DNA from: Candidatus Methylomirabilota bacterium
GTDB lineage: Bacteria; Methylomirabilota; Methylomirabilia; Rokubacteriales; DASRDR01
DNA: 64,000 nucleotides
Direction of reading: 5' to 3'
Assembly (NCBI GenBank): GCA_035550795.1
Contig: DASZOL010000017.1
Span: 5,113-69,112, forward strand
A model generated the notes under the pieces. That model was not told the origin of the DNA and made no database searches. It saw only the letters and a list, made by a program, of their open reading frames with translations. This document shows positions 10,837 to 40,752 of the stretch, in pieces. A program made the translations under genes and the position numbers. Each line of letters opens with the position of its first letter. Position 1 is the stretch's first letter.

Positions 10837-10863
10837 GCCTCGCGGATCGGGCTGCAGCAGGCG

Positions 10864-18465: not shown

Positions 18466-18541
18466 GGCTCCTGTCGCGCGGCCCCCGGTGGCGCGCAGCC
18501 GTGCTTGACCTCGGCAACGTTGCGGGCTAGCGTACCGCGTC

Positions 18542-19189
18542 GTGCGTGCCCGGGCCAAAGCTTCCCTGACGCCCGCCCCGCCCATTGGCGGGGTCATTTT
18601 CGACTTTGGCGGCGTCCTCATAGACATGCGGTGGGACGTGTCGGCCGGGCTCGAGGAGGCCCACGGGCTGCCCCGGCACGCCCTTCTCGAGACCCTGTAC
18701 CGAACCCCGACCTGGCGCGAGATCGAGCGGGGGCGGGGGGACCTCCTCGCCTGGCGCGTGGAGGCCCATCGGCTGCTCGAGGAGCGGGCCGGCCGGCCCC
18801 TCCCGAAGCTCCACGACGCCTGGGTCGCCGGCCGGGACCTCATCCGGGCCAACCTCGCCCTCGCGCGGCGGCTCCGCCCCGGGTACCGCACCGCGATCCT
18901 CTCGAACGCCGATCAGAGCTTGCGGGGACGCCTGCATGAGCTCGGGATTCACGACCTTTTCGACACGGTGGTCTCGTCGGCGGAGGAAGGCGTGGCCAAG
19001 CCGGAGCCCGAGATCTACCTCCGAGCGGCGCAGCGGCTCGGACTGCCTCCCGAGGCATGCGTCTTCGTGGACGACTACGACACGAACGTCCGCGCGGCCG
19101 AAGCGCTCGGCATGCGGGGGATCGTCTACCGATCCGACCGCGGGGAGGACCTCGCGACGCTCCTGGCAAACCTTGGCGTCGTGCCCTGA
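18542..19189 (+). CDS. HAD-superfamily hydrolase (subfamily IA)
   Basis: ORF track 215 aa (GTG start). Motif I VIFDFGGVL, motif II ILSNA, motif III/IV KPEPEIY...VFVDD. Confidence 0.8.
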   Translation: MRARAKASLTPAPPIGGVIFDFGGVLIDMRWDVSAGLEEAHGLPRHALLETLYRTPTWREIERGRGDLLAWRVEAHRLLEERAGRPLPKLHDAWVAGRDLIRANLALARRLRPGYRTAILSNADQSLRGRLHELGIHDLFDTVVSSAEEGVAKPEPEIYLRAAQRLGLPPEACVFVDDYDTNVRAAEALGMRGIVYRSDRGEDLATLLANLGVVP

Positions 19190-23328: not shown

Positions 23329-24339
23329 TCAGGCCGAGAGTCGGCGGCGCGTTCGGGCCGCCGCTGACGCCTCAGGGTTCAGGAGGAGCGCCGCCGGAGG
23401 CGCCGCGCCGCGCGCGACGGCCAGGATCGACTGGGCGCAGCAGTCGCCTACCCCGGCCTCCCCAGCGAGGTCTGATCCCGCGGCGTGGGGGGTCACGACC
23501 ACGTTCTCGAGGCCGAGGAGCGGCGAGCCGCTCGGCGGCTCGCGCCGGAACACGTCGAGCCCAGCGCCGGCGATCCGGCGGGCCGAGAGGGCCTCGTAGA
23601 GCGCCGCCTCGTCGACCAACCCGCCGCGCGCGGTATTGATCAGGAATGCCGTCGGCTTCATGAGCCGGAGCCGCGCCGCGTTGATCAGGCCATCGGTCTC
23701 CGGCGAGTGGGGGGCGTGCAGGGTGACGAAGTCCGACTCCCGGAGCAGCGTCTCGAGCGTCACCAGCTCGATCCCGTGGGCGCGCGCGTAGTCGGCGTCG
23801 GGCACCGTGTCGTGGGCGAGGATGCGCATCTCGTAGCCGCGACATCGTCGCGCCACGGCCCGGCCGATCCGCCCGAGCCCCACGATTCCGACCGTGGTGC
23901 GCCAGAGTCCAGGACGGAACTCCCAGCCCCAGCCCCCGGCCGTCACGCGCTGGTGGTAGACGACGACGTTTCGGGCGACGGCGCCCATCAGGGCCACGGC
24001 GAGATCCGCGACGCTCTCGTGGTTCCCGCCAAAGGCCATGGCCACGTAGACGCCGTGGCGCGTCGCGGCCGGAACGTCCACCTGGTCGTAGCCGACTCCG
24101 AACCGCGCGATCACCTCGAGGTCGGCCGCTTCCCGGAGGACGCGTTCCGTGTACGGCTCCACGCCGGCGATCGTCGCGAAGACGCCCCGGAGCCCCTCGA
24201 CCAGCTCCGCCTCGCCGTACGGGCGGCCCAGGGGGCTGCGCAGCACCTCGATGCCGGCGGCCTCCAGCCGGGCGAGATACGCGGACGGCCGGCTCGCCAG
24301 GAGCGACGGCACGACGAGAACTTTGAGCGACGCGGGCAT
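23329..24339 (-). CDS. D-isomer-specific 2-hydroxyacid dehydrogenase (phosphoglycerate/glyoxylate-reductase-like)
   Basis: ORF track 336 aa. GIVGLGRIGRAVARR NAD site, INTARGGLVDE, VTPHAAG. Confidence 0.85.
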   Translation of the reverse strand: MPASLKVLVVPSLLASRPSAYLARLEAAGIEVLRSPLGRPYGEAELVEGLRGVFATIAGVEPYTERVLREAADLEVIARFGVGYDQVDVPAATRHGVYVAMAFGGNHESVADLAVALMGAVARNVVVYHQRVTAGGWGWEFRPGLWRTTVGIVGLGRIGRAVARRCRGYEMRILAHDTVPDADYARAHGIELVTLETLLRESDFVTLHAPHSPETDGLINAARLRLMKPTAFLINTARGGLVDEAALYEALSARRIAGAGLDVFRREPPSGSPLLGLENVVVTPHAAGSDLAGEAGVGDCCAQSILAVARGAAPPAALLLNPEASAAARTRRRLSA

Positions 24340-24405: not shown

Positions 24406-25752
24406 TCAGGGCGCGGCGTCATCGCGCCGGACGACGCGACGCGCTTTCAACTCGTAGCGCGGCAGGGTCCGGGCGGGCACCGCCGTCACCTCGATCCGGA
24501 TCCCGAGATCGCGCCGGACGGCCTGGCCGACCCCGTCCACCGTCTGTCGGACCCTCTCGGCTGGCCCCGCGCTCCCGTCGATCTCGATCAGCAGCCGCAC
24601 CTCGTCCAGCACCCCTCGACGAAACACCTCGATCTGGAACTCGTCCACGGCGGCGAAGCGGCGCACGATCCCCTCGAGCGCCGACGGGAACACGTTGACG
24701 CCGCGAACGACCAGCATGTCGTCCACCCGGCCCAGGATGCCCCCCTCGAGGCGCGCGAACGTGCGGCCGCATGCGCACGCGTTCGGGGCCAGCCGCACCC
24801 GGTCGCCCGAGCGGTAGCGCAGGACCGGCGCCCCCCAGCGTCCCAGGTTCGTGAGCGTCAGCTCGCCGACTTCCCCCGGCGCCACTGGCCGGCCCCTCTC
24901 GGGATCGAGCACCTCGGCGACGAACTCGAGCTCGTTGACGTGGAGGCCCGCCTGCGCGATGCACTCGAACGCGTAGGCCCCCACCTCGGTCATGCCGGCG
25001 TGGTCATACGCCCGGGCGCCCCAGAGCAGCTCCAGGCGCTGGCGCACGGCGGGGATGCCGGCCCCCGGCTCGCCCGCGTGGACCGTCCTGCGGACGCCGA
25101 GCGCGGCCGGGTCAGCGCCCTGGGCGCGCGCGACTTCGGCGAGGTGAAGCCCGTACGACGGAGTGCAGACGAGCGCCGTGGCCCCGAGCTCCCGGATCGC
25201 GTGGAGTCGCGTCGCCGAGTCCTGACCGCCCCCCGGGATGGCCATCGCGCCGAGAACCCGCGCGCCCTCCAGCCCCGCCCAGAACCCGACAAAGAGCCCG
25301 AAGGAGAACGGGAAGAAGAGACGGTCGGGGGCAGCCAGCCCCGCCCCCCGGAACACGAAGGCCCAGCAGCGGGCCCACCAGGCCCAGGACGCCTCGGTCT
25401 CGAGCCACCGGAGCGGCGGACCCGTTGTGCCCGAGGTCTGGAACACGCGCACGTAGCGGTCGAGCGGATGCGTGAGGTTCGTGCCGAACGGCGGGTGAGC
25501 CGCCTGATCGGCGGACAGCTCCGCCTTCGTGAGCCGCGGGAGCCTGGCGAAGTCCGCCCACGAGGCGACGTCGCGCGGATCCCTCACACCGGCGGCCCGG
25601 AGGCGCTCCCGCCAGAAGATGTTGGAGTCCCAGACGTCACCCAGCCCGGCGATGAGGCGTTGCCACTGCCACTCTCGGAGGGTCTCGGGGGGCGCCGTCT
25701 CGCGCGCGCGGTCGAGAAACGGAACGTCGCTCGGCGCATCCGGGCGGGTCAT
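24406..25752 (-). CDS. PaaK-type aryl/phenylacetate-CoA ligase family protein
   Basis: Within ORF 24406..25860; ATG at 25752 (MTRPDAPSDVPFLDR), 448 aa. Adenylation motif QTSGTTGPPLRW, YRSGDRV, and a C-terminal ACT-like PaaK tail. Confidence 0.85.
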   Translation of the reverse strand: MTRPDAPSDVPFLDRARETAPPETLREWQWQRLIAGLGDVWDSNIFWRERLRAAGVRDPRDVASWADFARLPRLTKAELSADQAAHPPFGTNLTHPLDRYVRVFQTSGTTGPPLRWLETEASWAWWARCWAFVFRGAGLAAPDRLFFPFSFGLFVGFWAGLEGARVLGAMAIPGGGQDSATRLHAIRELGATALVCTPSYGLHLAEVARAQGADPAALGVRRTVHAGEPGAGIPAVRQRLELLWGARAYDHAGMTEVGAYAFECIAQAGLHVNELEFVAEVLDPERGRPVAPGEVGELTLTNLGRWGAPVLRYRSGDRVRLAPNACACGRTFARLEGGILGRVDDMLVVRGVNVFPSALEGIVRRFAAVDEFQIEVFRRGVLDEVRLLIEIDGSAGPAERVRQTVDGVGQAVRRDLGIRIEVTAVPARTLPRYELKARRVVRRDDAAP

Positions 25753-25780: not shown

Positions 25781-26674
25781 TCACGGCAGGGAGAGCCGGC
25801 CCGTGAGCACGATGACTGCCTGGCCGCCGACCCGGACACGGGTGGCGCGGCCAGGGACACCGTGCACCTCGACGGCGATCCGCCCGGGCCGGCCCTGGAA
25901 GTCGCCCTGCTCGCCCCGGAACCGCGCCACCCCGTCGGCGGCCCCGAGACCGCCCGTCTCCCAGAGCCACACGCCGATGGCCGCGTGCGAGGACCCGGTC
26001 GCGGGATCCTCCGGGATCCCGACGTGCGGGATGAAGTTCCGGGTGTGGGTGAGAGCGCCCGGCTCGCGCGACTCGCGCGCCGTGAGAACGACCCCGCGAA
26101 CCCCGCGCTCTCGAGCGAGCCGCCCGAGGGATGCCAGGTCGGGCGCGAGCAGACGGAGCGCCTCGAGCCCGGCCACCGGGATCAGCAGGTCCTGCTCGGA
26201 CGTGCGCGCGGGCGGGGCCCACCGGGCGACGGCGCTCGCGGGCAGCCCGAGAACGTCCAGAAACGGCGCGAGGTCGCCAGCCTCCGGCGCCCAGCGCGGG
26301 CAGTCCGGCTCGAACCACGCGGTCCGTGACGCGGGCGCCCCCTCGATCGCGATCGCGAGACGGTGGCGCGGGTGGACGAAGGTGAGCTCGCCTCGCGGGG
26401 CCTCACCGCGCGCCGCAAGCACGTGGGCCGCCGCCACCGTGCCGTGTCCGCAGAGCGTCAGCTCGACTCCGGCCGGCGAGAACCAGCGGAGCCCGCGCTC
26501 GCCGCCGCACACGGGCGGCTGGAGGAAGGCGGTGGCCGGCCGCGCCATCTCCACGGCGACGCCTCGCATCGCGACCTCGTCGAGGCCGCTCGCATCGGGC
26601 ACGACCGCGGCCGGGTTGCCGGTGAACGGGGTGGACGTGAAGACGTCAACGAGGACGACCTCGACCGCTCTCAC
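25781..26674 (-). CDS. PhzF-family isomerase/epimerase-like protein
   Basis: ORF track 297 aa. VDVFTSTPFTGNPAAVV N-terminus, TAFL, LCGHGTVAAAHV, EDPATGSSHAA (PhzF/DapF-like double domain). Confidence 0.85.
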   Translation of the reverse strand: MRAVEVVLVDVFTSTPFTGNPAAVVPDASGLDEVAMRGVAVEMARPATAFLQPPVCGGERGLRWFSPAGVELTLCGHGTVAAAHVLAARGEAPRGELTFVHPRHRLAIAIEGAPASRTAWFEPDCPRWAPEAGDLAPFLDVLGLPASAVARWAPPARTSEQDLLIPVAGLEALRLLAPDLASLGRLARERGVRGVVLTARESREPGALTHTRNFIPHVGIPEDPATGSSHAAIGVWLWETGGLGAADGVARFRGEQGDFQGRPGRIAVEVHGVPGRATRVRVGGQAVIVLTGRLSLP

Positions 26675-26756: not shown

Positions 26757-27311
26757 TCACGCGTCCTTGCCCGTGATCACCCAGAGCGTCCGCGCCGTGC
26801 CCGAGCCGACGTTCTCCCACGTGTGTGGAACGCCCCCGTCCAGAAACGCCGAGTCGCCCGTCTCAAGGAGGTGGCGCTCGCCGTTGTACTGGAGGGCGAT
26901 CTTCCCCTCGATGACGTACATGAGCTTCATCTGACCCGGCTCGATCAGGACGCGCTCGGGGGGCACGCTCGCGCCCCGCCGGCCGAGCGTCGAGACGACC
27001 GCGCGCACCTTGCCCCGGAAGAGGCCGGCCGCCAGGACCTCCCAGCGCTCGGTCGACCCGTCGAAGCTGACGACCGCGTAGTCCTTCCGCCGCCCGAGGT
27101 GCAGTTGGCCGTTCGGGGCCTGCTCGAAGAAGGCCCCGATCGGAACACCGAGGGCGCTCGCCAGCCGCCCCAGGGTGTGAAGGGACGGCGTCAGCTTGTC
27201 GGACTCGATCTGGGACACCAGGCTCGGCGTGAGCCCGGCGGTCCCCGCCAGCGCCTTCTGCCGGATGCCGCGATCCGTCCGCAGCCCACGGATCCGCGCC
27301 CCGAGGGACAC
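26757..27311 (-). CDS. XRE-family HTH transcriptional regulator with C-terminal cupin sensor domain
   Basis: ORF track 184 aa. HTH IRGLRTDRGIRQKALAGTAGLTPSLVSQIESDK, and cupin GKIALQYNGERHLLETGDSAFLDGGVPHTWEN. The start is 3 nt after the boxB stop. Confidence 0.85.
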   Translation of the reverse strand: MSLGARIRGLRTDRGIRQKALAGTAGLTPSLVSQIESDKLTPSLHTLGRLASALGVPIGAFFEQAPNGQLHLGRRKDYAVVSFDGSTERWEVLAAGLFRGKVRAVVSTLGRRGASVPPERVLIEPGQMKLMYVIEGKIALQYNGERHLLETGDSAFLDGGVPHTWENVGSGTARTLWVITGKDA

Positions 27312-27314
27312 CGG

Positions 27315-28727
27315 TCAGCTCCGGACGTACTCGAAGTCGACGGGATTCCCGTTGATCCCGCGGGCGGGCGGCGCGATCCAGCTGGCGAACTTGCCGCGCT
27401 CGACGACCGGGGCCATCAGGCTCTGCACGAACGCCTTGTCGTTCTCCGTTGGCAGCCACTCCCCGTGTCGCGCGTCCCACTCCGCCTGGCTGACCACCCG
27501 GCCGTCGGGCGACACGCGCGCCTCCGCGAATGCCCCGATCGCCCGGTGGAAGCCGCGATGGGGTAGCCGGAGCTCCAAATCGACCCCGTGCTTCCGGATC
27601 GTCTCGTTCCAGCGGTCGACGCCGCGCTGGCAGTCCGCGACGTAATCGTCCCGAAGGCGCTCGTTGAGCGCGGTCAGCGCCGCCTCCTCCCGCGTCACGA
27701 CACGCTCGCCGTCGAGCTGGGTCACCGGGTACGTCGCGTCCGCGAGCACGTGGTCGTCGGTCTTCTTGCCCTCCTCGAACCGGCCCTTGAGGCCCGCGGT
27801 GTAGAAGTTGGCGGCGTTGGTCGAGATCTCGCCCCCGAACAGGTCGATCGAGACGGAGAAGTGAAAGTTCAGGTAGCGCTGGATCGTGGCCAGGTCGATG
27901 ACCCCGTGCTTCCGGACGTCGTCCGTGCGATGCTCCCGCATCGCCTCGCAGGTGCGCTGGACGACCCGTCCCAGGCCTGCCTCGCCGACGAACATGTGGT
28001 GCGCTTCCTCGGTCAGCATGAAGCGGCAGGTGCGGGATAGCGGATCGAACCCGCTCTCGGCGAGGCTCGCGAGCTGATACTTGCCGTCCCGGTCGGTGAA
28101 GTAGGTGAACATGAAGAACGAGAGCCAATCGGGCGTCTTCTCGTTGAACGCGCCAAGGATGCGCGGCTTGTCCTGGTCCCCCGAATGACGCTGGAGCAGC
28201 GCCTCCGCCTCCTCCCGGCCGTCGCGGCCGAAGTGCGCGTGAAGGAGGTACACCATCGCCCAGAGGTGCCGGCCCTCCTCCACGTTGACCTGGAAGAGGT
28301 TGCGCAGGTCGTAGAGCGACGGGCACGTTCGCCCGAGTTGGCGCTGCTGCTCCACCGACGCGGGCTCGGTGTCGCCCTGCGTGACGATCAGCCGCCGCAG
28401 CGTGCCGCGGTGCTCCCCCGGGACGTCCTGCCACGCCGCCTGGCCACGGTGGGCTCCGAAGCCGATCGTGCGCCCCGGCTCGGGCTCGGCGAGGAAGATG
28501 CCCCACCGGTACTCAGGCATCCGCACGTAGTCGAAGTGCGCCCATCCCTGCGCATCCACGCTGATCGCCGTGCGGAGGTAGACGTCCCTCGCCTGGAACC
28601 CCTCGGGCCCCATCTCGTGCCACCACTGGAGGAACCGCGGCTGCCACTCCTCGAGCGCCCGCAGGAGGCGCCGGTCCTCGTGGAGGCGGACGTTGTTCGG
28701 GATGCGCTCCTGGTAGTCGACCGCCAT
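27315..28727 (-). CDS. boxB: benzoyl-CoA 2,3-epoxidase (benzoyl-CoA oxygenase) component B, di-iron
   Basis: ORF track 470 aa. N-terminus MAVDYQERIPNNVRLHEDRRLLRALEEWQP is characteristic of BoxB. Two EExH di-iron motifs (NVEEGRHLW, LTEEAHHMF). The start shares 1 nt with the boxC stop. Confidence 0.9.
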   Translation of the reverse strand: MAVDYQERIPNNVRLHEDRRLLRALEEWQPRFLQWWHEMGPEGFQARDVYLRTAISVDAQGWAHFDYVRMPEYRWGIFLAEPEPGRTIGFGAHRGQAAWQDVPGEHRGTLRRLIVTQGDTEPASVEQQRQLGRTCPSLYDLRNLFQVNVEEGRHLWAMVYLLHAHFGRDGREEAEALLQRHSGDQDKPRILGAFNEKTPDWLSFFMFTYFTDRDGKYQLASLAESGFDPLSRTCRFMLTEEAHHMFVGEAGLGRVVQRTCEAMREHRTDDVRKHGVIDLATIQRYLNFHFSVSIDLFGGEISTNAANFYTAGLKGRFEEGKKTDDHVLADATYPVTQLDGERVVTREEAALTALNERLRDDYVADCQRGVDRWNETIRKHGVDLELRLPHRGFHRAIGAFAEARVSPDGRVVSQAEWDARHGEWLPTENDKAFVQSLMAPVVERGKFASWIAPPARGINGNPVDFEYVRS

Positions 28728-30409
28728 CAGGCTCTCCTCCGATCGAACTCCGGGCGCTGGCCCGTCCCGTAGACCCGGAGCGCTCCCCGCTCCCCCACCG
28801 CGTTCGGGCGCTGGAAGATCCAGTTCTGCCAGGCCGACAGCCGCGCGAAGACCTTGCTCTCGATGGTCTCCGGCCCCCCGAAGCGCAGCGAGGCCTCCAT
28901 GCCGGTCAGGGCGTCCGGCGAGAACGCCGCCCGCTCCTCGATGGCGATTCGCACCTCGTCGTCCCAGTCGATGTCGTCGGGTGTGAACGTGACCAGCCCG
29001 GCCTCCGTCGCGGCCCGCGCGTCCAGATCCTCGCCGATCCGGCGCTTCAGCTCGTCGATCCGGGCGCGCTCGCCGAGGAACCGACTCTCAAGGCGCGTGA
29101 GCCCGTTGACCATCGGGTGGGCTCCGAAGCTCGGCTCGCCCAGCCGGACGGTCGCCGCCGGGCCGGCGGCGCCCTCGCGCGTCCCCTCGAGCATGTACGA
29201 GCGGTCGGCGGCGAGGACCAGCTCGAAGAGGGTGCCCGCGAAGCACGAGCCAGGCTCGATCAGCGCGAACACGGACCGTGAGGAGACGTCGATGCGCTTC
29301 AGCACGCGCTTCCAGAAGAGCCGGATCTCCCGTACGAGCCAGTCGGCCTGGTGGTCGGCCAGCAGCCGGTCGTACGCCGCCACACCGTCGGCGCTTCCCG
29401 ACGTCCGCAGCACCCACACCCCCACCTCCTCCTCGTTGGTGCGGAGGTGCAGGATCAGATCGTCGAGCTCCCGCGCGAGGGCCAGCGGCCAGAAGGCGGC
29501 GCCCTGGGCATGAAGCCCGGCTAGATCGCCCGGCGGCGCGCCGTCCGGACCCGCCACGCCGATCTCCGCCACGCCCCGCGCCCGGTCGATCGCGCAGGTC
29601 AGGTGGTGGTAGGCGATCCGGTCCCCCTCGATCGTCCGGCCGAGCGGCGAGAGCTCGATCCCCCTGGCGGACGCGGGCCGGTCGCTCCGCTCCGCGAGCT
29701 GGACCGCACGCTCCCGGGCCCCCTCGGCGAGCCGGGAGCGCGGGACGACCTCGTCGACCAGTCCCCACTCCACCGCCCGGCGGCCCTTGATGCCTTCCTC
29801 CAGCGTGCAGAAGACGTCCGCGCGGTCCCGCCGGACGTGGCGCTTGTCGACCAGACGCGTGAGCCCTCCCGTGCCGGGCAGCACTGCCAGGAGCGGCACC
29901 TCCGGAAGGGACACGGCCGTGTTCCCGTCGTCCGCCATGAGGATCCAGTCGGTCGCCAGGGCCAGCTCGTAGCCCCCGCCGGCGCAGGGCCCGTTCACCA
30001 CGGTGAGATAGCGCTGGCCGGATGACGCGCTCGCCTCCTCCATCGCGTTCCTCGTCTCGTTCGTGAACTTGCAGAAGTTCACCTTCCAGCCATGTCCAGA
30101 CTGGCTCAGCATGCGAATGTTGGCCCCGGCGCAGAACACCCGCTCCTTGAGCGAGGTGATCATCACGGCGCCGACCTCGGGATGCTCGAAACGGAGCCGC
30201 TGGATCGCGTCGGCCAGCTCGATGTCGACGCCGAGGTCGTAGGAGTTGAGCTTCAGCTCGTAGCCGGACCGGAGCCCGCCGTCCTCCCGGACGTCCATCG
30301 CGAGCGTCGCCACGCGACCCTCGACGCTGAGCTTCCAGTGCCGGTAGCGCGACGGATCCGTCCGGAAGTCCACCGGAGTCGTCGGCTGGCTCGCAGCGCG
30401 TTCCGCCAT
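28727..30409 (-). CDS. boxC: 2,3-epoxybenzoyl-CoA dihydrolase (benzoyl-CoA-dihydrodiol lyase), crotonase superfamily
   Basis: ORF track 560 aa. YRHWKLSVEGRVATLAMDVREDGGLRSGYELKLNSYDLGVDIEL and FCAGANI blocks; size is typical of BoxC. Confidence 0.9.
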   Translation of the reverse strand: MAERAASQPTTPVDFRTDPSRYRHWKLSVEGRVATLAMDVREDGGLRSGYELKLNSYDLGVDIELADAIQRLRFEHPEVGAVMITSLKERVFCAGANIRMLSQSGHGWKVNFCKFTNETRNAMEEASASSGQRYLTVVNGPCAGGGYELALATDWILMADDGNTAVSLPEVPLLAVLPGTGGLTRLVDKRHVRRDRADVFCTLEEGIKGRRAVEWGLVDEVVPRSRLAEGARERAVQLAERSDRPASARGIELSPLGRTIEGDRIAYHHLTCAIDRARGVAEIGVAGPDGAPPGDLAGLHAQGAAFWPLALARELDDLILHLRTNEEEVGVWVLRTSGSADGVAAYDRLLADHQADWLVREIRLFWKRVLKRIDVSSRSVFALIEPGSCFAGTLFELVLAADRSYMLEGTREGAAGPAATVRLGEPSFGAHPMVNGLTRLESRFLGERARIDELKRRIGEDLDARAATEAGLVTFTPDDIDWDDEVRIAIEERAAFSPDALTGMEASLRFGGPETIESKVFARLSAWQNWIFQRPNAVGERGALRVYGTGQRPEFDRRRA

Positions 30410-30419
30410 GGGACCCTCG

Positions 30420-31184
30420 TCAGTCGACCCGCGACTCGTCGCGGTACATGACCTTGTGGCGCGTCGTCTTGATCCACGCGTCGATGTCGGCGTCGGTCAT
30501 GAACGCCTCGGGGTCGAAGCGGCCCCAGCTCATGATCTGCGCGAGCGACTTCTTCCACCGCTTGTAGGACGGCTTGGCCGGCGGCCCGAAGCACATGATG
30601 TCGATCACGTCGAGCGCGTCCGGAACCCCCAGCAGGGGCTTGACCTGCCGCTGGATCTCCTCCTGCCCGATCGCGGTGATCCACCACACGGCGTACCCGA
30701 GCGCCGCAGCCGCCAGGTGGGCCGACATCGTGGAGGCGGCCACGCTCTGGAGCAGGATCCGCTCGGCGTTCCTCTTGTAGAGCCGGTCGAGCTCCGAGTC
30801 GTCGTTCAGGACGGGAAACGCCCGGATGAAGCGGAAGTCGGCGACGATCACGACCAGGCCGGGAGCGGTCTTGACGCCGTTGTAGTTGGGCGTCGGGAAC
30901 CCCATTCGGAGCTTCGCCCGGTGCTGCTGCTCCGCGACGAACAGCTCCCCGATCCGCCGCTTGACCCCGGGGTCGGTCACCACGACGTAGTGCCAGGGCT
31001 GGGCGTTCGCGCCGGAGGGAGCGTGGCGGGCGGCCTCCAGGATCATCCCGAAGTGCTCGCGCGGGACCTCGTACGGGGCGAAGGCCCGGTTGGTCATCCT
31101 CGCGCGCACCACCTCCATCAGCACCTCGTAGCGCGCGAGGTTGTTGAACGGGGCGGCTGGAACCGCGGCGGCCTGCCCGAACAT
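30420..31184 (-). CDS. nitroreductase-family flavoprotein (FMN-dependent oxidoreductase fold)
   Basis: Within ORF 30420..31268; ATG at 31184 (MFGQAAAVPAAP...), 254 aa. R(A/S)xRxF-type N-terminal motif RMTNRAF and HAPSGANAQPWHYVVV. Lies 10 nt upstream of boxC and 38 nt downstream of hcrB. Confidence 0.8.
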   Translation of the reverse strand: MFGQAAAVPAAPFNNLARYEVLMEVVRARMTNRAFAPYEVPREHFGMILEAARHAPSGANAQPWHYVVVTDPGVKRRIGELFVAEQQHRAKLRMGFPTPNYNGVKTAPGLVVIVADFRFIRAFPVLNDDSELDRLYKRNAERILLQSVAASTMSAHLAAAALGYAVWWITAIGQEEIQRQVKPLLGVPDALDVIDIMCFGPPAKPSYKRWKKSLAQIMSWGRFDPEAFMTDADIDAWIKTTRHKVMYRDESRVD

Positions 31185-31222
31185 GGCTCCCTCCTGTGTC
31201 ACTCGCCGACCTCGCCTCGGGG

Positions 31223-32263
31223 CTACCGGGCCTCTTCCACCGCTCGCGCCGCCATCCCGGAGGGCCACAGCCCCTCGATGGGCAACCCGGCCAGCTCCCG
31301 GAGCGCGCGGGCCACGTAGACCCGCGTCATCCGCTTCCGATAGTGATAGACGAGGTCGGTGTTGTCGAGCGGCTTCGCCGGGCGGGCGGCGGCCTCGGCC
31401 GCCCGCGCGATGACCTCCGGATCAAGGCGCTGGCCGACGAGCGCGCGCGCGGCCTCCGGCACCTCGCGCGGCGTCGAGGCCACCGCCCCGAGCACGATCC
31501 GGGCCTCCCGGCACACGCCGGTCTCGAGGCGCACGGCGACCGCGACGCCGAGCACGGGGAAGTCGAACGCCCCGCGCCGCCGGAGCTTCCAGTACGTCGC
31601 GCGCCAGCCGTCGACGGGGGGAAGATGGAGCTCGGTCAGGATCTCGTCCGGCGCCTTGCCGAGATACTCGATGCCGTCGTCCCGGAAGAGCCCGGCGACC
31701 GGGATCCGGCGCTCGCCCGCCGGGCCGGCGAGGGTCACCTCGGCACCCAGCGCCCAGAGCACCGGCGCGGTGTCCGAGGACGACACGGCCCAGCAGCGCG
31801 GGCTGCCCGGCGCCACCAGGCAGATGTCGCCGTCCCTCTTCATGCAGAAGCCGATGGCCCGGCGCCACTCGTAGGACTGGTTGTAGTAGTTGCAGCGCGT
31901 GTCGACGCAGACGTTGCCGCCGAGCGTCCCCATGTTGCGGAGCTGGGGCGTCGAGACCACGCCGGCCGCCCGCGCGAGCGCGGGGTAGTGCGCGGCGATC
32001 TCCGGGTGCCCCGAGACCCGCGTGAGCGTCGCGGCGGCCCCCACGACCATGCCATCCCGCCCGCTGCCGTGGATCCTCGTAAGCTCCCGGATGCCGCGCA
32101 GGCCGACCAGCACCCGCGGCTCCATCTGGAGGCGTTTCATGTTGGGGTAGAGATCGGTCCCGCCCGCCACCACCGCGGCCTCGCGGCCATGCTCGCTCAG
32201 GAGCCGGACCGCTTCGTCGGTCCGCCGCGGGGCGAGGTACGTGAAGGGCGGCAGCCGCATCAT
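31223..32263 (-). CDS. hcrB: 4-hydroxybenzoyl-CoA reductase beta (FAD + [4Fe-4S]) subunit
   Basis: ORF track 346 aa. CoxM/XdhB-type FAD domain (AGGTDLYPNMK, MGTLGGN). It also carries the Cys-rich insertion CVDTRCNYYNQSYEWRRAIGFCMKRDGDICLVAPGSPRCWA. This matches the pattern (CxDTRCx(F/Y)YNQS..W....G(Y/F)C.K..GD.C.V....S.RC) I recall for the extra [4Fe-4S] loop of Thauera HcrB. Confidence 0.8.
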   Translation of the reverse strand: MMRLPPFTYLAPRRTDEAVRLLSEHGREAAVVAGGTDLYPNMKRLQMEPRVLVGLRGIRELTRIHGSGRDGMVVGAAATLTRVSGHPEIAAHYPALARAAGVVSTPQLRNMGTLGGNVCVDTRCNYYNQSYEWRRAIGFCMKRDGDICLVAPGSPRCWAVSSSDTAPVLWALGAEVTLAGPAGERRIPVAGLFRDDGIEYLGKAPDEILTELHLPPVDGWRATYWKLRRRGAFDFPVLGVAVAVRLETGVCREARIVLGAVASTPREVPEAARALVGQRLDPEVIARAAEAAARPAKPLDNTDLVYHYRKRMTRVYVARALRELAGLPIEGLWPSGMAARAVEEAR

Positions 32264-34695
32264 CGGCGGATGGGCTCCTTCCCGTGGACGGCCCCGGCCG
32301 CGCGGCCTTCAGGATCGACCCAGGGCGGCGGGACGCGGATCGGGTCCGGGAAGCTGACGTGGGGCAGCCGCTCCGGCCCGACGCGCGGCGGCTTCCCCTG
32401 AGTCTTCAGGTCGAGCGCCTTCAGGATCTTCTCAGGGGTGATCGGCACCTCGTCGATCCGCACGCCAATCGCGTCGTAGACCGCGTTCGCCACCGCCGGG
32501 ATGACCGGCAGGAGCGGGCCCTGGCCGGCTTCCTTGGCGCCGAACGGCCCCTCGGGGTCCCGCGTCTCGACGAGGAGTGTCGTGATCTCCGGCGTCTCGA
32601 GGGTCGTGGGGCTCTTGTACTCGAGGAGGGATGGGATCTTGTGGAGACCGTGGGCGCGGAAGGCCGACTCCTCCATGAGGGCCTCCCCGAGCCCCATGTA
32701 GATGGAGCCCTCGACCTGGCCCTCCACGAGGAGCGGGTTGATGGCCGTGCCCCCGTCGTGGGCGATCCAGACCCGCTCCACGCGGACATCGCCGGTTTCC
32801 CGATCGACCTCCAGCTCGACGGCGCAGGCGGAGTACGAGTACGCGGGGGTCGGGCCCACGCCCGAGCCCTTGAACTTGGCGGCGCGGCGCGGCGGCGTGT
32901 AGGAGCCCGCGGCGACGAGCGTCCCGTGCGCCGACTCCGCCAGCCGCGCCGCCTCATCGAAGGCGAGCGCCCGGCCCGGGTCGTCCCGCACGAAGATCCG
33001 CCGGTCGCGCGCATCGAGGTCGTCGGGCGACGCCTCGAGCTTCTTCGCCGCCGCGGCGAACAGGGTGCCCCGGACCTTCTCGGCGGCTTCACGGGCGGCG
33101 TTGCCTGTCATGAGCGTGACGCGCGAGGAGTACGAGCCCAGGTCCACCGGGGTCAGGTCCGTGTCGGCGGTGACAACCCGCACGTCTTCCGGCCGGACGC
33201 CGAGGACCTCGGCGACGACGTAGGCAAGGACCGAGTCGGATCCCTGGCCGATGTCGATCGAGCCGCAGAACGCCGCGACGCCGCCGCCACGGTCGACCTT
33301 CAGCATGACGCCGGAGTGCGGCATGTCGTTCCAGTAGATCGGGAGCCCGGCCCCGGACAGGTACGCGGAGGCCGCGAAGCCGATCCCGCGGCCCGGGGGC
33401 AGCTTCCGGAACTTGTCGCGCCATCCGGACGCGTCCACCACGCGGTCGATGCAGTCGGAAAGGCCGCATGTCGTCACGGTCAGGTGGTTGACCGTTTTCT
33501 CGTGCTCGGGCACGACGGCGCGCCGCCGCATCGCCGCCGGGTCCAGGCCGAGCTCCGCGGCGATCTTGTCGAGGTGGACCTCCAGAGCAAAGCGGGGCTG
33601 CGGCGTTCCGTGACCGCGCTTGGGACCGCACGGAGGCTTGTTCGTGAAGACGCGGCACCCTTCGAACTTGTATCGCGCGATCCGGTACGTGACGGTCTGG
33701 AGCGCGCCGGTGTAGAACGTGGACGCGACGCCATATGAACCGTACGCTCCGCCGTCGAGCCACGTCCGGAAGTGCAGCGCGAGGATCTCGCCGTCCTTCC
33801 GGACACCAGACCGGACCCACATGAGGACCGGGTGGCGGCCCCGGTGCGTGTAGAAGACCTCCTCGCGGGTGAGAGTCGTCTTGACCGGCCGGCCCGTGAG
33901 CTGAGCCAGCCGCGCGACGACCATCTCGTGGCTGAAGGGGTCGGACTTGCCTCCGAAGCCGCCGCCGTTCGGCGTCGCGATCACGCGCACGTGACTCATG
34001 GGCACGCCGAGGACCTTCCCGAGCGCGCGGTGAACATAGTGCGGCGTCTGGGTCGAAGACCAGAGGGTGAGCTTCCCGTCCGGGGTCCACTGGGCGACGG
34101 CGGCGTGCTGCTCCATCGGGAGGTGCGTGTTTCCCTCGAAGAAGAAGACGTCCTCGCGGACCAGGTCGGCCTCGCGGAACCCCTCCTCGACGTCGCCGAA
34201 CTCGAGAGAGACGAGCTTGTGGATGTTGTGCCCGTCGCCGTACTCGTGGATCCGGTGGGACCCCTCCCGGAGCGCGGCCTCGATCGACATCAGCGAATCC
34301 AGCGGCGCGTACTCCACCTCGATCAGCCGGGCGGCCGCCTCCGCGGTCTCCTCGTCCACGGCGGCGACGGCCGCCACGGGGTCCCCCACGAACCGGACCT
34401 TCTCCACGCAGAGCGGCTCCTCGTCCTGGCTCACGGGCATGATCCCGAACCGGACGGGCCGGAAATCCCGCCCCGTGATGACCGCGTAGACTCCGGACAG
34501 GGCCGCCGCCCGCGCCGTGTCGATCCGGCGGATGAGGGCGTGCGGATGCTGGGCTCGCAGGAGCTTCGCGTACGCCATGCGCGGGAGGGCGAGGTCGTCC
34601 GCGAAGCGCGTCTCGCCGGTCACCTTCGCCCAGGCGTCGACCTTCGGAAGCCGATGCCCGACGACGGACAGGGGCCGCCCGGACGGGTTACTCAC
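32260..34695 (-). CDS. hcrA: 4-hydroxybenzoyl-CoA reductase alpha (molybdopterin) subunit, xanthine-dehydrogenase family
   Basis: Within ORF 32260..35052; GTG at 34695 overlaps the hcrC TGA (VSNPSGRPLSVVGHRLPKVDAWAKVTGETRFADD), 811 aa. Aldehyde-oxidase/XDH a/b-hammerhead and Mo-binding blocks (GGGFGGK, ECGQG-like GAKEAGQG). Confidence 0.8.
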   Translation of the reverse strand: MSNPSGRPLSVVGHRLPKVDAWAKVTGETRFADDLALPRMAYAKLLRAQHPHALIRRIDTARAAALSGVYAVITGRDFRPVRFGIMPVSQDEEPLCVEKVRFVGDPVAAVAAVDEETAEAAARLIEVEYAPLDSLMSIEAALREGSHRIHEYGDGHNIHKLVSLEFGDVEEGFREADLVREDVFFFEGNTHLPMEQHAAVAQWTPDGKLTLWSSTQTPHYVHRALGKVLGVPMSHVRVIATPNGGGFGGKSDPFSHEMVVARLAQLTGRPVKTTLTREEVFYTHRGRHPVLMWVRSGVRKDGEILALHFRTWLDGGAYGSYGVASTFYTGALQTVTYRIARYKFEGCRVFTNKPPCGPKRGHGTPQPRFALEVHLDKIAAELGLDPAAMRRRAVVPEHEKTVNHLTVTTCGLSDCIDRVVDASGWRDKFRKLPPGRGIGFAASAYLSGAGLPIYWNDMPHSGVMLKVDRGGGVAAFCGSIDIGQGSDSVLAYVVAEVLGVRPEDVRVVTADTDLTPVDLGSYSSRVTLMTGNAAREAAEKVRGTLFAAAAKKLEASPDDLDARDRRIFVRDDPGRALAFDEAARLAESAHGTLVAAGSYTPPRRAAKFKGSGVGPTPAYSYSACAVELEVDRETGDVRVERVWIAHDGGTAINPLLVEGQVEGSIYMGLGEALMEESAFRAHGLHKIPSLLEYKSPTTLETPEITTLLVETRDPEGPFGAKEAGQGPLLPVIPAVANAVYDAIGVRIDEVPITPEKILKALDLKTQGKPPRVGPERLPHVSFPDPIRVPPPWVDPEGRAAGAVHGKEPIRR

Positions 34696-35186
34696 GGGCG
34701 CGGCTCCCCGGCGCTCTCGGCGACCATCCGAGCGGCGGCGAGCTCGACGGCGTCGAGGATCTTCGTGTACCCCGTGCAGCGGCAGAGATTCCCGGCCAGC
34801 GCGGCCCGGATGGCATCGCGGTCGGGCCGGGGGTCCGCGCCGAGCAGCGCCTTGGCGGTGAGAAGGATCCCCGGCGTGCAGTACCCGCACTGCGCGGCCC
34901 CGAGCTCCGCGAAGGCCTGCTGCAGCGGGTCGAGGCGTCCCCCCTCGGCCAGGCCCTCCACCGTCAGGATGTCGGAGGCCTGGCATTCGACCGCGAGGGC
35001 CAGGCACGAGAGTATCGGCTGGCCGTCCACGAGCACGGTGCAGGTCCCGCACTCACCCAGCTCGCAGCCGTGCTTGGTCCCCGGGAGTCCGAGGTCCTCG
35101 CGCAGCACCTCGAGGAGGGTCCGGTGGACGGGCGCCGCGACCTCGCGACGGTCCCCGTTCACGGTCAGGGTCATGAGGGTTCGCAT
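34692..35186 (-). CDS. hcrC: 4-hydroxybenzoyl-CoA reductase gamma (2x[2Fe-2S]) subunit
   Basis: Within ORF 34692..35432; ATG at 35186 (MRTLMTLTVNGD), 164 aa. Plant-type CELGECGTC...C and second cluster QCGYCTPG...CRCTGY. Confidence 0.85.
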   Translation of the reverse strand: MRTLMTLTVNGDRREVAAPVHRTLLEVLREDLGLPGTKHGCELGECGTCTVLVDGQPILSCLALAVECQASDILTVEGLAEGGRLDPLQQAFAELGAAQCGYCTPGILLTAKALLGADPRPDRDAIRAALAGNLCRCTGYTKILDAVELAAARMVAESAGEPRP

Positions 35187-35206: not shown

Positions 35207-35261
35207 GTTCAGGGTCAATGAAACCACTTAATGAATACTGAACCTGGAATCCGCCTGTCAA
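35207..35261 (-). promoter_or_regulatory. candidate promoter/operator of the hcr-box operon in an AT-rich patch
   Basis: Minus strand reads TTGACA (35261-35256), 18 nt, TATTCA (35237-35232). An inverted repeat GTTCAG-N25-CTGAAC (35243-35238 / 35212-35207 on the minus strand) brackets the -10 and the presumptive TSS. Direct repeat AATGAA occurs twice (plus 35217-35222 and 35230-35235). GGAG lies 4 nt before the hcrC ATG. Confidence 0.35.
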
Positions 35262-35470
35262 CCCCGACCTGCCGCCTCTCTCGGAGCCGGCCTCGCCGTG
35301 TGCCCAAGACGCCGGCCCGATCCGGCCGAGGACGTGCGCCAACGAGCCAGGCTGCGCGCCGGGCCGGGTCCGCTCCGGGGGTCGCCCTCCCAGCGGGCCC
35401 CCTCGCGACCTCGACGGCGCCCGGCGCGCCATCGGGGGTCGATCCGGATCCGAGAGCCGAGCCGCGTAGA

Positions 35471-38876: not shown

Positions 38877-39647
38877 TCACCGCCGCGCGCCCGTCCAGAA
38901 GCCCTCGGGGTCGAAGGTCCGGATCATGGCGAGCTCCTGCTCGGTGGGAGGCGCCGTCTCGCCGAGGTCGGGCGCCACGCTGAGCGGCCAGCCCGTCTGC
39001 GCTCGGATCTCCCCCACGGTGACCCCGGGGTGCGCGCTGGCCAGGACCATCTCGCGGCTCACGGGATCGAAGCGGAAGAGCCCGAGGGTGGTGATGACGG
39101 CCGACGGACCGCCGCCGGGCAGGCCCGTTCGCGCGCGCCAATCGCCGCCGCCACCGTGGCCAGGGGACGTGACGTAGTCGACCCGCTCCACGAAGCGTCG
39201 GCGCTCGTGCGTCATGATGACGACGTGGCGGCGGGCGAGCGAGGCGATGTCCGACCCGCCGCCGGACCCCGGGAGCCGGAGGGCCCCGCCCCGCGGCCCG
39301 ACGTAGGTGGTGTTGAGATTGCCGAAGCGGTCCACCTGGGCGCCCCCGATGAAGCCGAGCGTGACGCGCCCTGCCTGCATCAGGCCCATGACCTCGCGCA
39401 TCTCCGTGCACCAGAGGGCGCCGGTCACGTTGGGTCCGTCCGACATGGTCACCAGGAAGGCCTGCGCCGGCGAGTCGCGGACCACGCCATTCTCGAAGAG
39501 ACCCACCGCCCCCGGCGCGTGCATCGACCGGGCCAGGCAGAAGGCGAGGAGGGGGAGCCGCATGCCGACGAACACCACCTCGTCATCCTGGATCTCCCGC
39601 GCGGCGGCGGCCACCATGAGCTCCGCCGGGGTGTAGGGCCGCGTCAC
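38877..39647 (-). CDS. CoA-transferase subunit B (glutaconate/3-oxoacid CoA-transferase family)
   Basis: ORF track 256 aa. YTPAELMVAAAAREI...GFIGGAQVDRFGNLN; size and order match beta subunits. Confidence 0.8.
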   Translation of the reverse strand: MTRPYTPAELMVAAAAREIQDDEVVFVGMRLPLLAFCLARSMHAPGAVGLFENGVVRDSPAQAFLVTMSDGPNVTGALWCTEMREVMGLMQAGRVTLGFIGGAQVDRFGNLNTTYVGPRGGALRLPGSGGGSDIASLARRHVVIMTHERRRFVERVDYVTSPGHGGGGDWRARTGLPGGGPSAVITTLGLFRFDPVSREMVLASAHPGVTVGEIRAQTGWPLSVAPDLGETAPPTEQELAMIRTFDPEGFWTGARR

Positions 39648-39656
39648 GGGTAGCCC

Positions 39657-40571
39657 TCAGCAGGCGTAGTCGACCGGCTCGGCGAGCTTGGCCGCGCCAG
39701 GCCGGAGCCGGTCCAGGCGCGCCTGGCCAAGCTTCGCGAGGTAGGCCGAGTGATCGCGAGGTCCTCGCACCCACTCATCCAGCCACGCCACCGCCCCCTC
39801 CGCGCTGGCGGATCGCGCGTGCCAGTCCGCGTAGACGGGATGGTCCCGGTTGTAGTGCCCCTGGACCGGCGACGGGTGCGCTCCCCATGGCTGGTGGACG
39901 ACCGCGGTCACGAGGAATCCCGGCAGGAGCGTCCGGTTGGGGTCGCTCCGGATCACCGCGGGATCGACGAGCTCCTCCGTCACGACGATCACCGCGCGGC
40001 TCGCTTTGCCCGCCGCCGCGCTGACGCCCGTCGGTCCCCACGCGTGGCAGTTCCCGGCCGCGTCCGCCCGCTGGACATGAAGGATCGCCACGTCCGGAGC
40101 CAGCGCCGGCACGAGGACCAGCGGCACGCCGGTGAAGGGACACGGGGCCACCCGTGCGCGCGAGCCCGTGGAGAGGAGGTCCGAGCCGAGGAGGCTCCGG
40201 GTCGGCAGGTACGGAACCCCCTGCGCCGCGGCCTCGAGGGCCAGCGCGATCGAGAAGTTCGAGTGGTCCTCGATCTCGAGCGGGCACGGGATACCCTGCT
40301 CCAGTGCCCGGCGGAAAGCATAGGCCGCCCCGTGCTGGACGTTGCCGACCCACGCCGCGACGATGCGCCGGACGCAGCCGGCGGCGATCAGCTGCTCGAA
40401 GCAGATGTCCGATATCGGGCCGACCAGCGTGAGCTCCCGCCGGCGCTGGCGGATCAGCTCGTGCGCCGCGGCGAAGGGGATCAGGCATTCCAGGGCCGTG
40501 CCGAGGACCACGGTGGCGCCGTCGGGGACGTGGCGGCGGAGCGCCTCGGCCAGCGTGAGGACCTTGCTCAC
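39657..40571 (-). CDS. CoA-transferase subunit A (glutaconate CoA-transferase-like)
   Basis: Within ORF 39657..40634; GTG at 40571 (VSKVLTLAEALRRHVPDGATVVLG), 304 aa. The start is uncertain by about 20 codons. Confidence 0.75.
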   Translation of the reverse strand: MSKVLTLAEALRRHVPDGATVVLGTALECLIPFAAAHELIRQRRRELTLVGPISDICFEQLIAAGCVRRIVAAWVGNVQHGAAYAFRRALEQGIPCPLEIEDHSNFSIALALEAAAQGVPYLPTRSLLGSDLLSTGSRARVAPCPFTGVPLVLVPALAPDVAILHVQRADAAGNCHAWGPTGVSAAAGKASRAVIVVTEELVDPAVIRSDPNRTLLPGFLVTAVVHQPWGAHPSPVQGHYNRDHPVYADWHARSASAEGAVAWLDEWVRGPRDHSAYLAKLGQARLDRLRPGAAKLAEPVDYAC

Positions 40572-40752
40572 CGGCCGGCTCAGTCCACCTGGGGGGGAGC
40601 GGCGGCGCTCCGCCCCCAGACCCCCCCACCGCATTGATCAGTCGCGTGGCGCCGAAGAGATTGGTTCACGGCCTCTCAGTCGGTGAGCCCGGTGCCGGCC
40701 GGGGCCGCCACCGAGAACGGCAAGGCCCGACTCACGCCGCTGAGCCGGCGGC

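Follow-up and report, generated by a model that had tools for sequence, protein, structure and literature searches.

A conserved Rokubacteria gene cluster joins a 4-hydroxybenzoyl-CoA reductase-like enzyme to boxC and boxB of the benzoyl-CoA epoxidation pathway

4-Hydroxybenzoate is a major lignin-derived monomer whose textbook aerobic degradation runs via protocatechuate, and reductive dehydroxylation by 4-hydroxybenzoyl-CoA reductase (HBCR) is taken to indicate an anaerobic metabolism. An omics study of Aromatoleum aromaticum EbN1 growing aerobically and anaerobically on 3-(4-hydroxyphenyl)propanoate described a 'presumptive reductive dehydroxylation' of 4-hydroxybenzoyl-CoA, after which benzoyl-CoA enters either the aerobic box route or an anaerobic route, and the authors spoke of 'hybrid pathways' (Becker et al. 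2022; PMC9765128). Only two reductive dehydroxylases that belong to the xanthine oxidase (XO) family have been characterised, HBCR and Ucdh, the urolithin C 9-dehydroxylase of Enterocloster, which shares 33% identity with HBCR and has a free lactone instead of a CoA ester as its substrate (bioRxiv 10.1101/2025.01.17.632430). In Desulfatiglans anilini, HBCR-annotated proteins induced by aniline or 4-aminobenzoate have been proposed to be 4-aminobenzoyl-CoA reductases (PMC7500099). In the present study we analysed a 64-kb stretch (hereafter the window) of a Candidatus Methylomirabilota genome of the order Rokubacteriales (contig DASZOL010000017.1), in which the genes of an HBCR-like enzyme (hcrC, hcrA and hcrB) and the genes boxC and boxB lie in one co-directional cluster. 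We put at about 0.55 the probability that this cluster is a conserved catabolic operon of Methylomirabilota (Rokubacteria), transcribed from one promoter upstream of hcrC and encoding a mixed route of CoA activation, reduction to benzoyl-CoA, epoxidation and ring cleavage. A first-pass annotation of the same DNA had proposed such a hybrid route and knew of no description of the arrangement. Our literature search found no description of an hcr-box operon or of aromatic CoA pathways in Rokubacteria, and the soil metagenome studies that it returned merely count '4-hydroxybenzoyl-CoA reductase' genes; the novelty thus holds for the fused operon but not for the pathway logic, which had already been proposed for EbN1 (PMC9765128). 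The core genes of the cluster are the following.

34692..35186, minus strand: hcrC-like gamma subunit, 164 aa, with two [2Fe-2S] domains (Pfam Fer2 and Fer2_2; TIGR03193).
32260..34695, minus strand: hcrA-like alpha subunit, 811 aa, molybdopterin-binding and catalytic (Pfam Ald_Xan_dh_C, MoCoBD_1 and MoCoBD_2; TIGR03194).
31223..32263, minus strand: hcrB-like beta subunit, 346 aa, with FAD and an extra [4Fe-4S] loop (Pfam FAD_binding_5 and CO_deh_flav_C; TIGR03195).
28727..30409, minus strand: boxC, 2,3-epoxybenzoyl-CoA dihydrolase, 560 aa (NCBIfam TIGR03222 equivalog).
27315..28727, minus strand: boxB, diiron subunit of benzoyl-CoA 2,3-epoxidase, 470 aa (NCBIfam TIGR03225 equivalog).
24406..25752, minus strand: PaaK-type aryl-CoA ligase, 448 aa (Pfam AMP-binding and AMP-binding_C_2).

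The first-pass annotation had described seven head-to-tail genes on the minus strand, running from hcrC to an XRE-cupin regulator gene (35186..26757). This arrangement was correct, and all of its junctions were reproduced from the coordinates of the open reading frames (ORFs). The hcrA GTG start at 34695 overlaps the hcrC stop as GTGA (−4 nt), and the hcrB ATG start at 32263 overlaps the end of hcrA at 32260 as ATGA (−4 nt). A gap of 38 nt separates the end of hcrB (31223) from the start of a nitroreductase-family gene (31184), whose end (30420) lies 10 nt from the boxC start (30409). boxC ends and boxB starts at 28727, with 1 nt in common (−1), and 3 nt lie between the end of boxB (27315) and the XRE-cupin start (27311). 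The annotated extent was too short, as the co-directional cluster runs past the XRE-cupin gene through genes for a PhzF-family protein, the PaaK-type ligase and a 2-hydroxyacid dehydrogenase, ending at 23329, with gaps of 82 nt (XRE-cupin to PhzF), 28 nt (PhzF to ligase) and 66 nt (ligase to dehydrogenase). An operon of ten genes and ~12 kb (35186 to 23329, minus strand) is more likely than one of seven. A generic promoter and terminator scan found no minus-strand terminator-like sites inside the cluster, and an Rfam scan of the whole window gave no match. We rejected a chance or artefactual gene order, or a chimeric assembly, because five independent JGI contigs with identical BoxB, and also many genomes assembled from metagenomes, show this order.

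The AT-rich, promoter-like patch that had been noticed upstream of hcrC was borne out by a footprint conserved between diverged leaders.

35208..35262, minus strand: promoter/operator-like footprint, defined by conservation of the leader upstream of hcrC.

It consists of TTGACA (35261-35256), an 18-nt spacer and TATTCA (35237-35232), followed by a conserved TTAAnT..TTTCAT..CTGAA block, the conserved stretch past TATTCA being ~25 bases long. In an alignment with the leaders of three relatives (L005, L006 and L007) it was the sole conserved block, the rest of the leaders being unalignable. The pattern was found only upstream of hcrC, in L004, L005, L006 and L007, and its core TATYCATTAA has a single occurrence in the window, where chance would give 0.08. 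A generic sigma-70 scan did not call this promoter, because the −10 hexamer fits at only 3/6 positions; our promoter assignment is therefore based on the phylogenetic footprint and not on the generic scan. Inverted repeats in the hcrC leader were limited to GC-rich chance pairs, all outside the conserved block, in a window with a G+C content of ~72%.

The identities given earlier to the two box proteins were upheld. BoxC scored 911.8 bits against TIGR03222 (cut-off 712.3) and BoxB 863 bits against TIGR03225 (cut-off 499.1), and both were assigned as clear equivalogs. BoxB is 67-68% identical to annotated Mycetohabitans BoxB, and its translation contains the EEGRH and EEAHH motifs (VEEGRHLW and LTEEAHHMF), which we take, after the BoxB structure reported by Rather et al. 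2011, to be the diiron ligands.

For the upstream module, the Hcr identity stood at the family level, with the expected Pfam domains and an HBCR family as the best NCBIfam match of every subunit, but not as canonical HcrCAB, since all scores were sub-cut-off. The gamma subunit scored 183.4 bits against TIGR03193, the HBCR gamma family (cut-off 257.8), the alpha subunit 878.8 bits against TIGR03194 (cut-off 994.55), with XdhA as the next family at 544, and the beta subunit 293.2 bits against TIGR03195 (cut-off 404.55). Among PDB structures, Thauera HBCR was likewise the best match of the alpha subunit (1rm6_A, 645 bits vs 292 for CoxL) and of the beta subunit (196 bits vs 122 for the aldehyde oxidase medium subunit 5y6q_B). 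The Cys-rich loop that had been quoted for hcrB is present in the translation, and alignment with Thauera HcrB, proposed earlier as a check, placed its C124, C140, C148 and C157 without gaps on Cys 122, 138, 146 and 155 of 1rm6_B, which are reportedly the [4Fe-4S] cluster ligands (Unciuleac et al. 2004). The four residues are invariant in 74/74 homologues fetched. Similar Cys loops are present in some aldehyde oxidoreductases (5y6q_B and PaoB), and on these alignments the four-Cys loop is necessary, not sufficient, for HBCR membership.

The canonical loci L086 and L087, named as such by PGAP, likewise have the three genes in the order hcrC-hcrA-hcrB. hcrA residues 10-764 align with residues 9-765 of Thauera HcrA, and an identical 811-aa protein is present in NCBI as HWC01881.1 from a Methylomirabilota metagenome-assembled genome, where PGAP names it only 'molybdopterin cofactor-binding domain-containing protein'. 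The JGI call of hcrA (787 aa; window, L001/L004) begins 24 codons late and loses residues aligned to Thauera HcrA. We take the 811-aa GTG start as the right one because of the alignment to Thauera HcrA and the NCBI annotation.

To place the alpha subunit, the Thauera HcrA sequence was rebuilt from the PDB alignment and used as a protein-database query. This search returned a tight canonical clade, named by PGAP as 4-hydroxybenzoyl-CoA reductase subunit alpha and including Magnetospirillum, Burkholderiales and Sedimenticola, whereas PLSDB plasmids, searched with tblastn for canonical HBCR, gave only 39-40% identical XDH-family genes. Canonical alpha subunits share at least 71% identity with one another and 39-45% with the clade of the window. 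A neighbour-joining tree was then built that included 50%-identity representatives from an exhaustive HMMER search (60 bootstraps). The canonical HBCR clade was recovered alone, without the window clade, in 60/60 replicates and the window clade in 45/60; a superclade of the canonical, window and intermediate clades appeared in 51/60, and the canonical clade as direct sister of the window group plus intermediates in 37/60. Residues that mark the superclade are present in the window clade, for example those at Thauera Y326, H220, H282, P458/H459 and M528. By the structural scores and the superclade, HBCR is the closest characterised relative of the alpha subunit, and the combination that the first-pass annotation had named as telling against the Hcr identity, an alpha subunit in a non-HBCR clade together with an unaligned Cys loop, was not found. 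The Hcr-like enzyme is therefore placed outside the characterised HBCR family in the strict sense, while being related to HBCR and probably sharing its reductive chemistry.

The nearest 50%-identity representative outside the window's own cluster, P0241 (GCA_018335975.1; L089 8001-10850), is 57% identical and is a natural HcrC-HcrA fusion of 949 aa. Two BcrAD/BadFG-type genes lie beside it, together with genes for an acyl-CoA dehydrogenase, for a 2-oxoacid:ferredoxin oxidoreductase and for a MocA-like cytidylyltransferase; such a setting is classically reductive and linked to ferredoxin.

The linkage of the two modules was analysed in a GTDB-wide scan centred on HcrA, from which the best 80 of at least 596 loci were compared, and in a second scan of metagenome contigs centred on BoxB. 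Among these best 80 loci, boxC lies directly downstream of the hcr genes in all 15 informative Rokubacteria/Methylomirabilota genome loci, and boxB follows in 14 of them, the contig of the remaining one (L026) ending before boxB. In the second scan, hcr genes were present on 4/4 metagenome contigs that had a BoxB of at least 79% identity and enough upstream sequence. The neighbourhood search that had been suggested as a check thus showed the linkage to recur in both data sets, and two differently labelled metagenome-assembled genomes had the same hcr-box arrangement. HcrA identity across the Rokubacteria hcr-box loci is 66-93%, and the fact that the linkage has been kept over this range speaks for a functional link between the two modules.

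Two layouts were observed. Layout A (window, L005 and L008, the 7.3-kb contig of L008 ending at boxB) has the order hcrCAB, nitroreductase, boxCB, XRE, PhzF, ligase and 2-hydroxyacid dehydrogenase, and the close relatives L006 and L007 show the same order minus the nitroreductase gene. Layout B has hcrCAB, XRE, boxC, boxB, sometimes a Rid-family gene, a benzoate-CoA ligase (BCL) family gene (668 bits against TIGR02262) and mostly then a PaaK-type ligase. Outside Rokubacteria, one locus (L161; JACXTT010000110.1, 8279-17361), assigned to Acidoferrales from the names in its BoxB cluster, carries boxC, boxB, amidohydrolase_2, TetR, hcrC, hcrA and hcrB, which is a second, independent joining of both modules in another phylum and in another order. 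A 794-aa aldehyde dehydrogenase gene lies on the opposite strand ~3 kb upstream of its boxC, and a related Acidoferrales genome (L170) has a Rieske oxygenase in place of the hcr genes of L161.

The two ligases of layout B (BCL-type and PaaK-type) are consistent with two entry substrates, and hence with modules that are co-located but used alternatively: at very low O2 the Hcr-like enzyme would feed a reductase encoded elsewhere, BoxBC would serve benzoate when O2 is present, and there would be no hybrid flux. A related contig (L009) points the same way, with an apparent hcrCAB-XRE followed by a BCL-type ligase and no boxCB match (a short intervening stretch was uninspected), and facultative degraders are known to hold both routes with ligases in common (PMC10803450). 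Such a use is hard to reconcile with overlapping or very short junctions and a single conserved promoter, which would force co-expression, or with a linkage that is kept in lineages with HcrA identity down to 66%; moreover, the neighbour families conserved in the Rokubacteria loci included no benzoyl-CoA reductase genes. We consider alternative use unlikely and prefer the mixed route, in which both modules act in sequence.

In this mixed route the PaaK-type ligase would convert a para-substituted benzoic acid, most likely 4-hydroxybenzoate, into its CoA thioester. The Hcr-like enzyme, with a molybdenum cofactor, two [2Fe-2S] clusters, FAD and the extra [4Fe-4S] cluster, would then remove the para substituent reductively to give benzoyl-CoA, with a low-potential donor, encoded elsewhere, passing electrons in through the [4Fe-4S] loop. 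BoxB would epoxidise the benzoyl-CoA with O2 and BoxC would cleave the ring hydrolytically, while the XRE-cupin protein would regulate the unit; the genes would be co-transcribed, and the reductive step would have to proceed with O2 present. Of the hybrid route as first proposed, the family identities, the Cys loop and the conserved linkage held up, but the enzyme proved non-canonical, and 4-hydroxybenzoyl-CoA is a plausible substrate only, because of the sub-cut-off scores, the 43% identity of the alpha subunit to Thauera HcrA and the separate canonical clade. Its dehydroxylation would be supported indirectly by the gene context, with an aryl-CoA ligase on the one hand and BoxBC as consumers of benzoyl-CoA on the other.

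Several findings weigh against the mixed route. All three Hcr-like subunits fall under their HBCR equivalog cut-offs. The 43% identity between the window alpha subunit and Thauera HcrA is barely above the 40% shared with an uncharacterised Sinorhizobium XDH-family protein, and of 78 alignment columns in which canonical HBCR has an invariant residue that is rare in other sequences, the window clade shares ~20% (11 of the 78 fully). The window ligase is 35% identical to the PaaK-type ligase beside canonical hcrCAB in Aquabacterium, although the latter more probably serves an adjacent PadBCD-like enzyme. The epoxidase had been assumed to be BoxAB; using Mycetohabitans BoxA as the query, tblastn detected no BoxA homologue in the 64-kb window or in any of the hcr-linked boxB loci (0/16). 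No ferredoxin or ferredoxin-reducing enzyme was present among the annotated genes of the window (part of its ORFs being scanned) or of the loci. Furthermore, characterised HBCR is reportedly O2-sensitive, whereas BoxB needs O2. Because neither a ferredoxin nor BoxA lies in the cluster, we infer the electron donors of both the Hcr-like enzyme and BoxB.

BoxA is also missing from many clusters unrelated to hcr. Among boxB loci without hcr and with enough flank, it was present in 21/43 and absent from 22/43, and in a published survey of box genes 13/148 contexts lacked boxA or boxB (PMC10803450). Because BoxA-less boxCB clusters are equally common without hcr, Hcr is not a general substitute for BoxA. 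The BoxA-less boxC-boxB clusters belong to diverse lineages with G+C contents of 41-69% and have no BoxA homologue within 8-10 kb; examples are L099, L100, L102, L104, L114, L118, L127, L145, L164 and L170 (boxB at ~10001-11420 in each). In the annotated clusters L099 and L118 an Rrf2 regulator lies beside boxCB and a BCL-type ligase, and L099 also has a GNAT gene and a CoA-transferase pair. A search for a conserved substitute reductase in such clusters brought out only Rrf2, GNAT, BCL-type ligase, CoA-transferase pair and transporter genes. The nitroreductase-family protein of the window was likewise rejected as a BoxA substitute, since neither L006 and L007 (93% HcrA identity) nor any layout-B locus has it and its similarity is to generic nitroreductases only.

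The occurrence of BoxA in none of the hcr-linked boxB loci, and not in the window, against about half of the loci without hcr, would also fit an Hcr-like complex that works oxidatively, as is usual in the XO family, for example by oxidising the ring-cleavage aldehyde 3,4-dehydroadipyl-CoA semialdehyde (the job of BoxD) and passing the two electrons via the [4Fe-4S] cluster to BoxB (the job of BoxA), which would make an electron loop within the pathway. In the Rokubacteria clusters no aldehyde dehydrogenase was present among the annotated neighbours, no search aimed at BoxD having been made, and an aldehyde oxidase medium subunit (5y6q_B, 122 bits), aligned over the same loop region, is the second-best match of the beta subunit among structures. 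The 22 BoxA-less boxCB loci without hcr speak against this role, as do the box-less members of the same Hcr-like clade in many phyla, paired only with a ligase, the reductive ferredoxin/Bcr-type context of the nearest outside relative P0241 and the large aldehyde dehydrogenase near the Acidoferrales locus. We therefore regard an oxidative role as very improbable. It would be just as surprising if the Hcr-like complex were the feeder and also the redox partner of BoxB, with electrons from aldehyde oxidation in place of BoxD or from its own donor, handed to the diiron epoxidase by its surface [4Fe-4S] cluster; were this true, the cluster would encode a self-contained, NADPH-independent system for dearomatising benzoyl-CoA. 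We thus retain a reductive Hcr-like enzyme upstream of BoxB and BoxC.

The PaaK-type ligase shares with PaaK only its architecture (AMP-binding plus AMP-binding_C_2), as its scores against the PaaK equivalogs TIGR02155 and NF041878 were 223.6 and 234.4 bits and the cut-offs of 646.3 and 700 were not reached. Homologues with 51-68% identity adjoin Hcr-like genes beyond the lineage of the window, in Rokubacteria, Chloroflexota, Binatia, 'Deltaproteobacteria' and Thermogemmatispora. No other partner of the Hcr-like genes is as widely conserved as this ligase, which is the probable activating enzyme of the pathway. The remaining genes of the cluster are the following.

30420..31184, minus strand: nitroreductase-family flavoprotein, 254 aa (Pfam Nitroreductase, 86 bits).
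26757..27311, minus strand: regulator with an XRE-family helix-turn-helix and a cupin domain, 184 aa (Pfam HTH_3/HTH_31 and Cupin_2).
25781..26674, minus strand: PhzF-family isomerase, 297 aa (Pfam PhzC-PhzF, 176.7 bits; TIGR00654, 138 bits).
23329..24339, minus strand: D-isomer-specific 2-hydroxyacid dehydrogenase, 336 aa (Pfam 2-Hacid_dh and 2-Hacid_dh_C).

The XRE-cupin gene is kept in 17 hcr-box loci and stands between hcrB and boxC in layout B. The nitroreductase-family protein gave only weak matches to BluB and generic nitroreductases; its gene is a lineage-specific insert, which the window, L005 and L008 have but which the close relatives L006 and L007 and every layout-B locus lack. The PhzF gene was found only in layout A, with synteny in L005, L006 and L007. 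The 2-hydroxyacid dehydrogenase gene is the last co-directional gene of layout A and is syntenic in L001-L003 and L005-L007.

These accessory genes bear on the substrate. The same architecture could serve another para substituent or a hydroxybenzoyl-CoA isomer, likewise reduced to benzoyl-CoA as the substrate of BoxBC. The substituent might, for example, be the amino group of 4-aminobenzoyl-CoA, a compound possibly derived from 4-nitrobenzoate via the nitroreductase-family protein. The nitroreductase and PhzF genes of layout A and the Rid-family gene of layout B are linked to nitrogen chemistry, and the Hcr-like clade is distinct from canonical HBCR. The Thauera 4-hydroxybenzoate-CoA ligase, a 48-kDa monomer, accepts 4-aminobenzoate as well (PMC8388817), 4-aminobenzoyl-CoA reductases have been proposed among the HBCR-annotated proteins of D. 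anilini (PMC7500099), and Ucdh widens the range of the chemistry beyond 4-hydroxybenzoyl-CoA (bioRxiv 10.1101/2025.01.17.632430). However, the accessory genes differ between the layouts and, because they are not conserved, they cannot define the core substrate. In soil, moreover, 4-hydroxybenzoate is commoner than 4-aminobenzoate. A different substrate therefore seems to us improbable, though to be kept in mind, and 4-hydroxybenzoate remains the preferred starting acid of the mixed route.

The Hcr-like clade extends well beyond Rokubacteria. Members with 62-67% identity and no nearby box genes were found in Acidobacteriota (Pyrinomonadaceae and Blastocatellia), Gemmatimonadota, Dormibacterota, Binatia and Chloroflexota, and a minority of these box-less loci (11) adjoin a homologue of the PaaK-type ligase. 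The soil phyla that hold most of the clade are generally regarded as aerobic. A cultured member of Chloroflexota, Thermogemmatispora aurantia A1-2 (L080 9299-15172, NZ_BKZV01000001.1; also L083), carries hcrCAB and a PaaK-type ligase as an isolated four-gene unit with unrelated neighbours; its HcrA is 62% identical to that of the window and the four [4Fe-4S] Cys residues are intact. We take Thermogemmatispora to be an aerobe. The label 'anaerobic' that the hcr genes had been given is thus unfit for this clade.

The Acidobacteriota loci showed features of their own. In L024, L025, L029, L030, L032-L035, L037, L039, L042, L063 and L072, a gap of 0.1-3.7 kb lies between hcrA and hcrB and, where it is wider, contains other genes (Pyrinomonadaceae and Blastocatellia). 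They share genes for a MocA-type molybdenum cofactor cytidylyltransferase, a PRK08258-type enoyl-CoA hydratase and a thioredoxin-like protein, and most have panB, panC and folK upstream.

Tentatively, the Hcr-like clade may represent an O2-compatible reductive dehydroxylase of aerobic soil phyla, providing an aerobic CoA route for lignin-derived 4-hydroxybenzoate that bypasses protocatechuate. We hold this idea to be possible, though short of probable, and much likelier than that of a redox partner for BoxB. Rokubacteria are abundant, uncultured soil bacteria, probably living at fluctuating or low O2, and our results suggest that they use a CoA-dependent mixed route. Since many soil phyla have this Hcr-like clade, counts of 'hcrA/K04108' in metagenomes are unsafe as evidence of anaerobic aromatic degradation. 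The clade also offers a tractable system for how a low-potential Mo/FeS dehydroxylase can work in aerobes, as T. aurantia A1-2 carries the hcrCAB-ligase module.

Elsewhere in the window, a pair of CoA-transferase subunit genes (256 and 325 aa; 38877-40634, minus strand) lies 3.7 kb upstream of hcrC, separated from it by CBS-domain, quinone-oxidoreductase-like and PEP-mutase-family genes. In the BoxA-less box cluster L099 a similar pair comes after the BCL gene, and the pair upstream of hcrC may be a link to the lower pathway. A hybrid sensor kinase of ~1240 aa (15187-18912, minus strand) with several GAF domains, HisKA/HATPase_c and a receiver domain is encoded 4.4 kb downstream of the cluster. 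The flanks are of a housekeeping kind and encode a TtuA-like tRNA thiolase, a hybrid histidine kinase, a thiolase, RecG, RelA/SpoT, SecDF and TGT.

Among described systems, HcrCAB of Thauera aromatica (1rm6/1sb3) and HbaBCD of Rhodopseudomonas palustris share with the window the gamma-alpha-beta order, the domain set and the four-Cys loop, and they form the best-scoring characterised family for all three subunits. The window differs from Thauera HcrCAB in an alpha subunit of 43% identity, in the sub-cut-off scores of all subunits and in ~80% of the canonical-specific residues, which it does not share. The partners differ as well, being benzoyl-CoA reductase and PadBCD-like genes for the canonical hcrCAB of Aquabacterium, the one canonical locus analysed in detail, in contrast with BoxB and BoxC in the window. 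In Aquabacterium humicola (L086 2778-13343) the canonical genes are flanked on one side by a PadBCD-like molybdoenzyme and the PaaK-type ligase and on the other by a second AMP-binding ligase, with class I benzoyl-CoA reductase subunits ~5 kb further on; this looks like a compact anaerobic module leading from 4-hydroxyphenylacetate or 4-hydroxybenzoate to benzoyl-CoA.

With the box pathway, BoxABC(D) of Aromatoleum evansii, Paraburkholderia xenovorans and Mycetohabitans, the window has in common the BoxB and BoxC equivalogs and, with Mycetohabitans, the order boxC-boxB. It differs in having no BoxA and no BCL family gene and in the Hcr-like reductase upstream in the same operon. The BoxR regulator of box genes has a C-terminal domain that is shikimate-kinase-like. 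The regulator of the window combines XRE and Cupin_2 domains and is not of the BoxR type, BoxR also being an XRE-family protein (PMC10803450). The window's 448-aa ligase falls in the same size class as the Thauera 4-hydroxybenzoate-CoA ligase (PMC8388817).

Ucdh and the putative D. anilini enzyme resemble the Hcr-like enzyme as XO-family proteins that reductively remove a para substituent from a ring with an electron-withdrawing carbonyl, but their hosts are strict anaerobes and no link to box genes has been reported for them. Taken together, the cluster shows a BoxBC module without BoxA to which Rokubacteria have fixed an HBCR-like enzyme from a divergent, soil-wide clade, a combination that is new as an operon and not as pathway logic. 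That logic, dehydroxylation followed by the box route, is shared with EbN1, where it relies on regulatory overlap between separately encoded modules and on a canonical HBCR in a cultured facultative denitrifier (PMC9765128), whereas in the window, from an uncultured phylum, one operon fuses the modules, the Hcr-like clade is divergent and BoxA is lacking.

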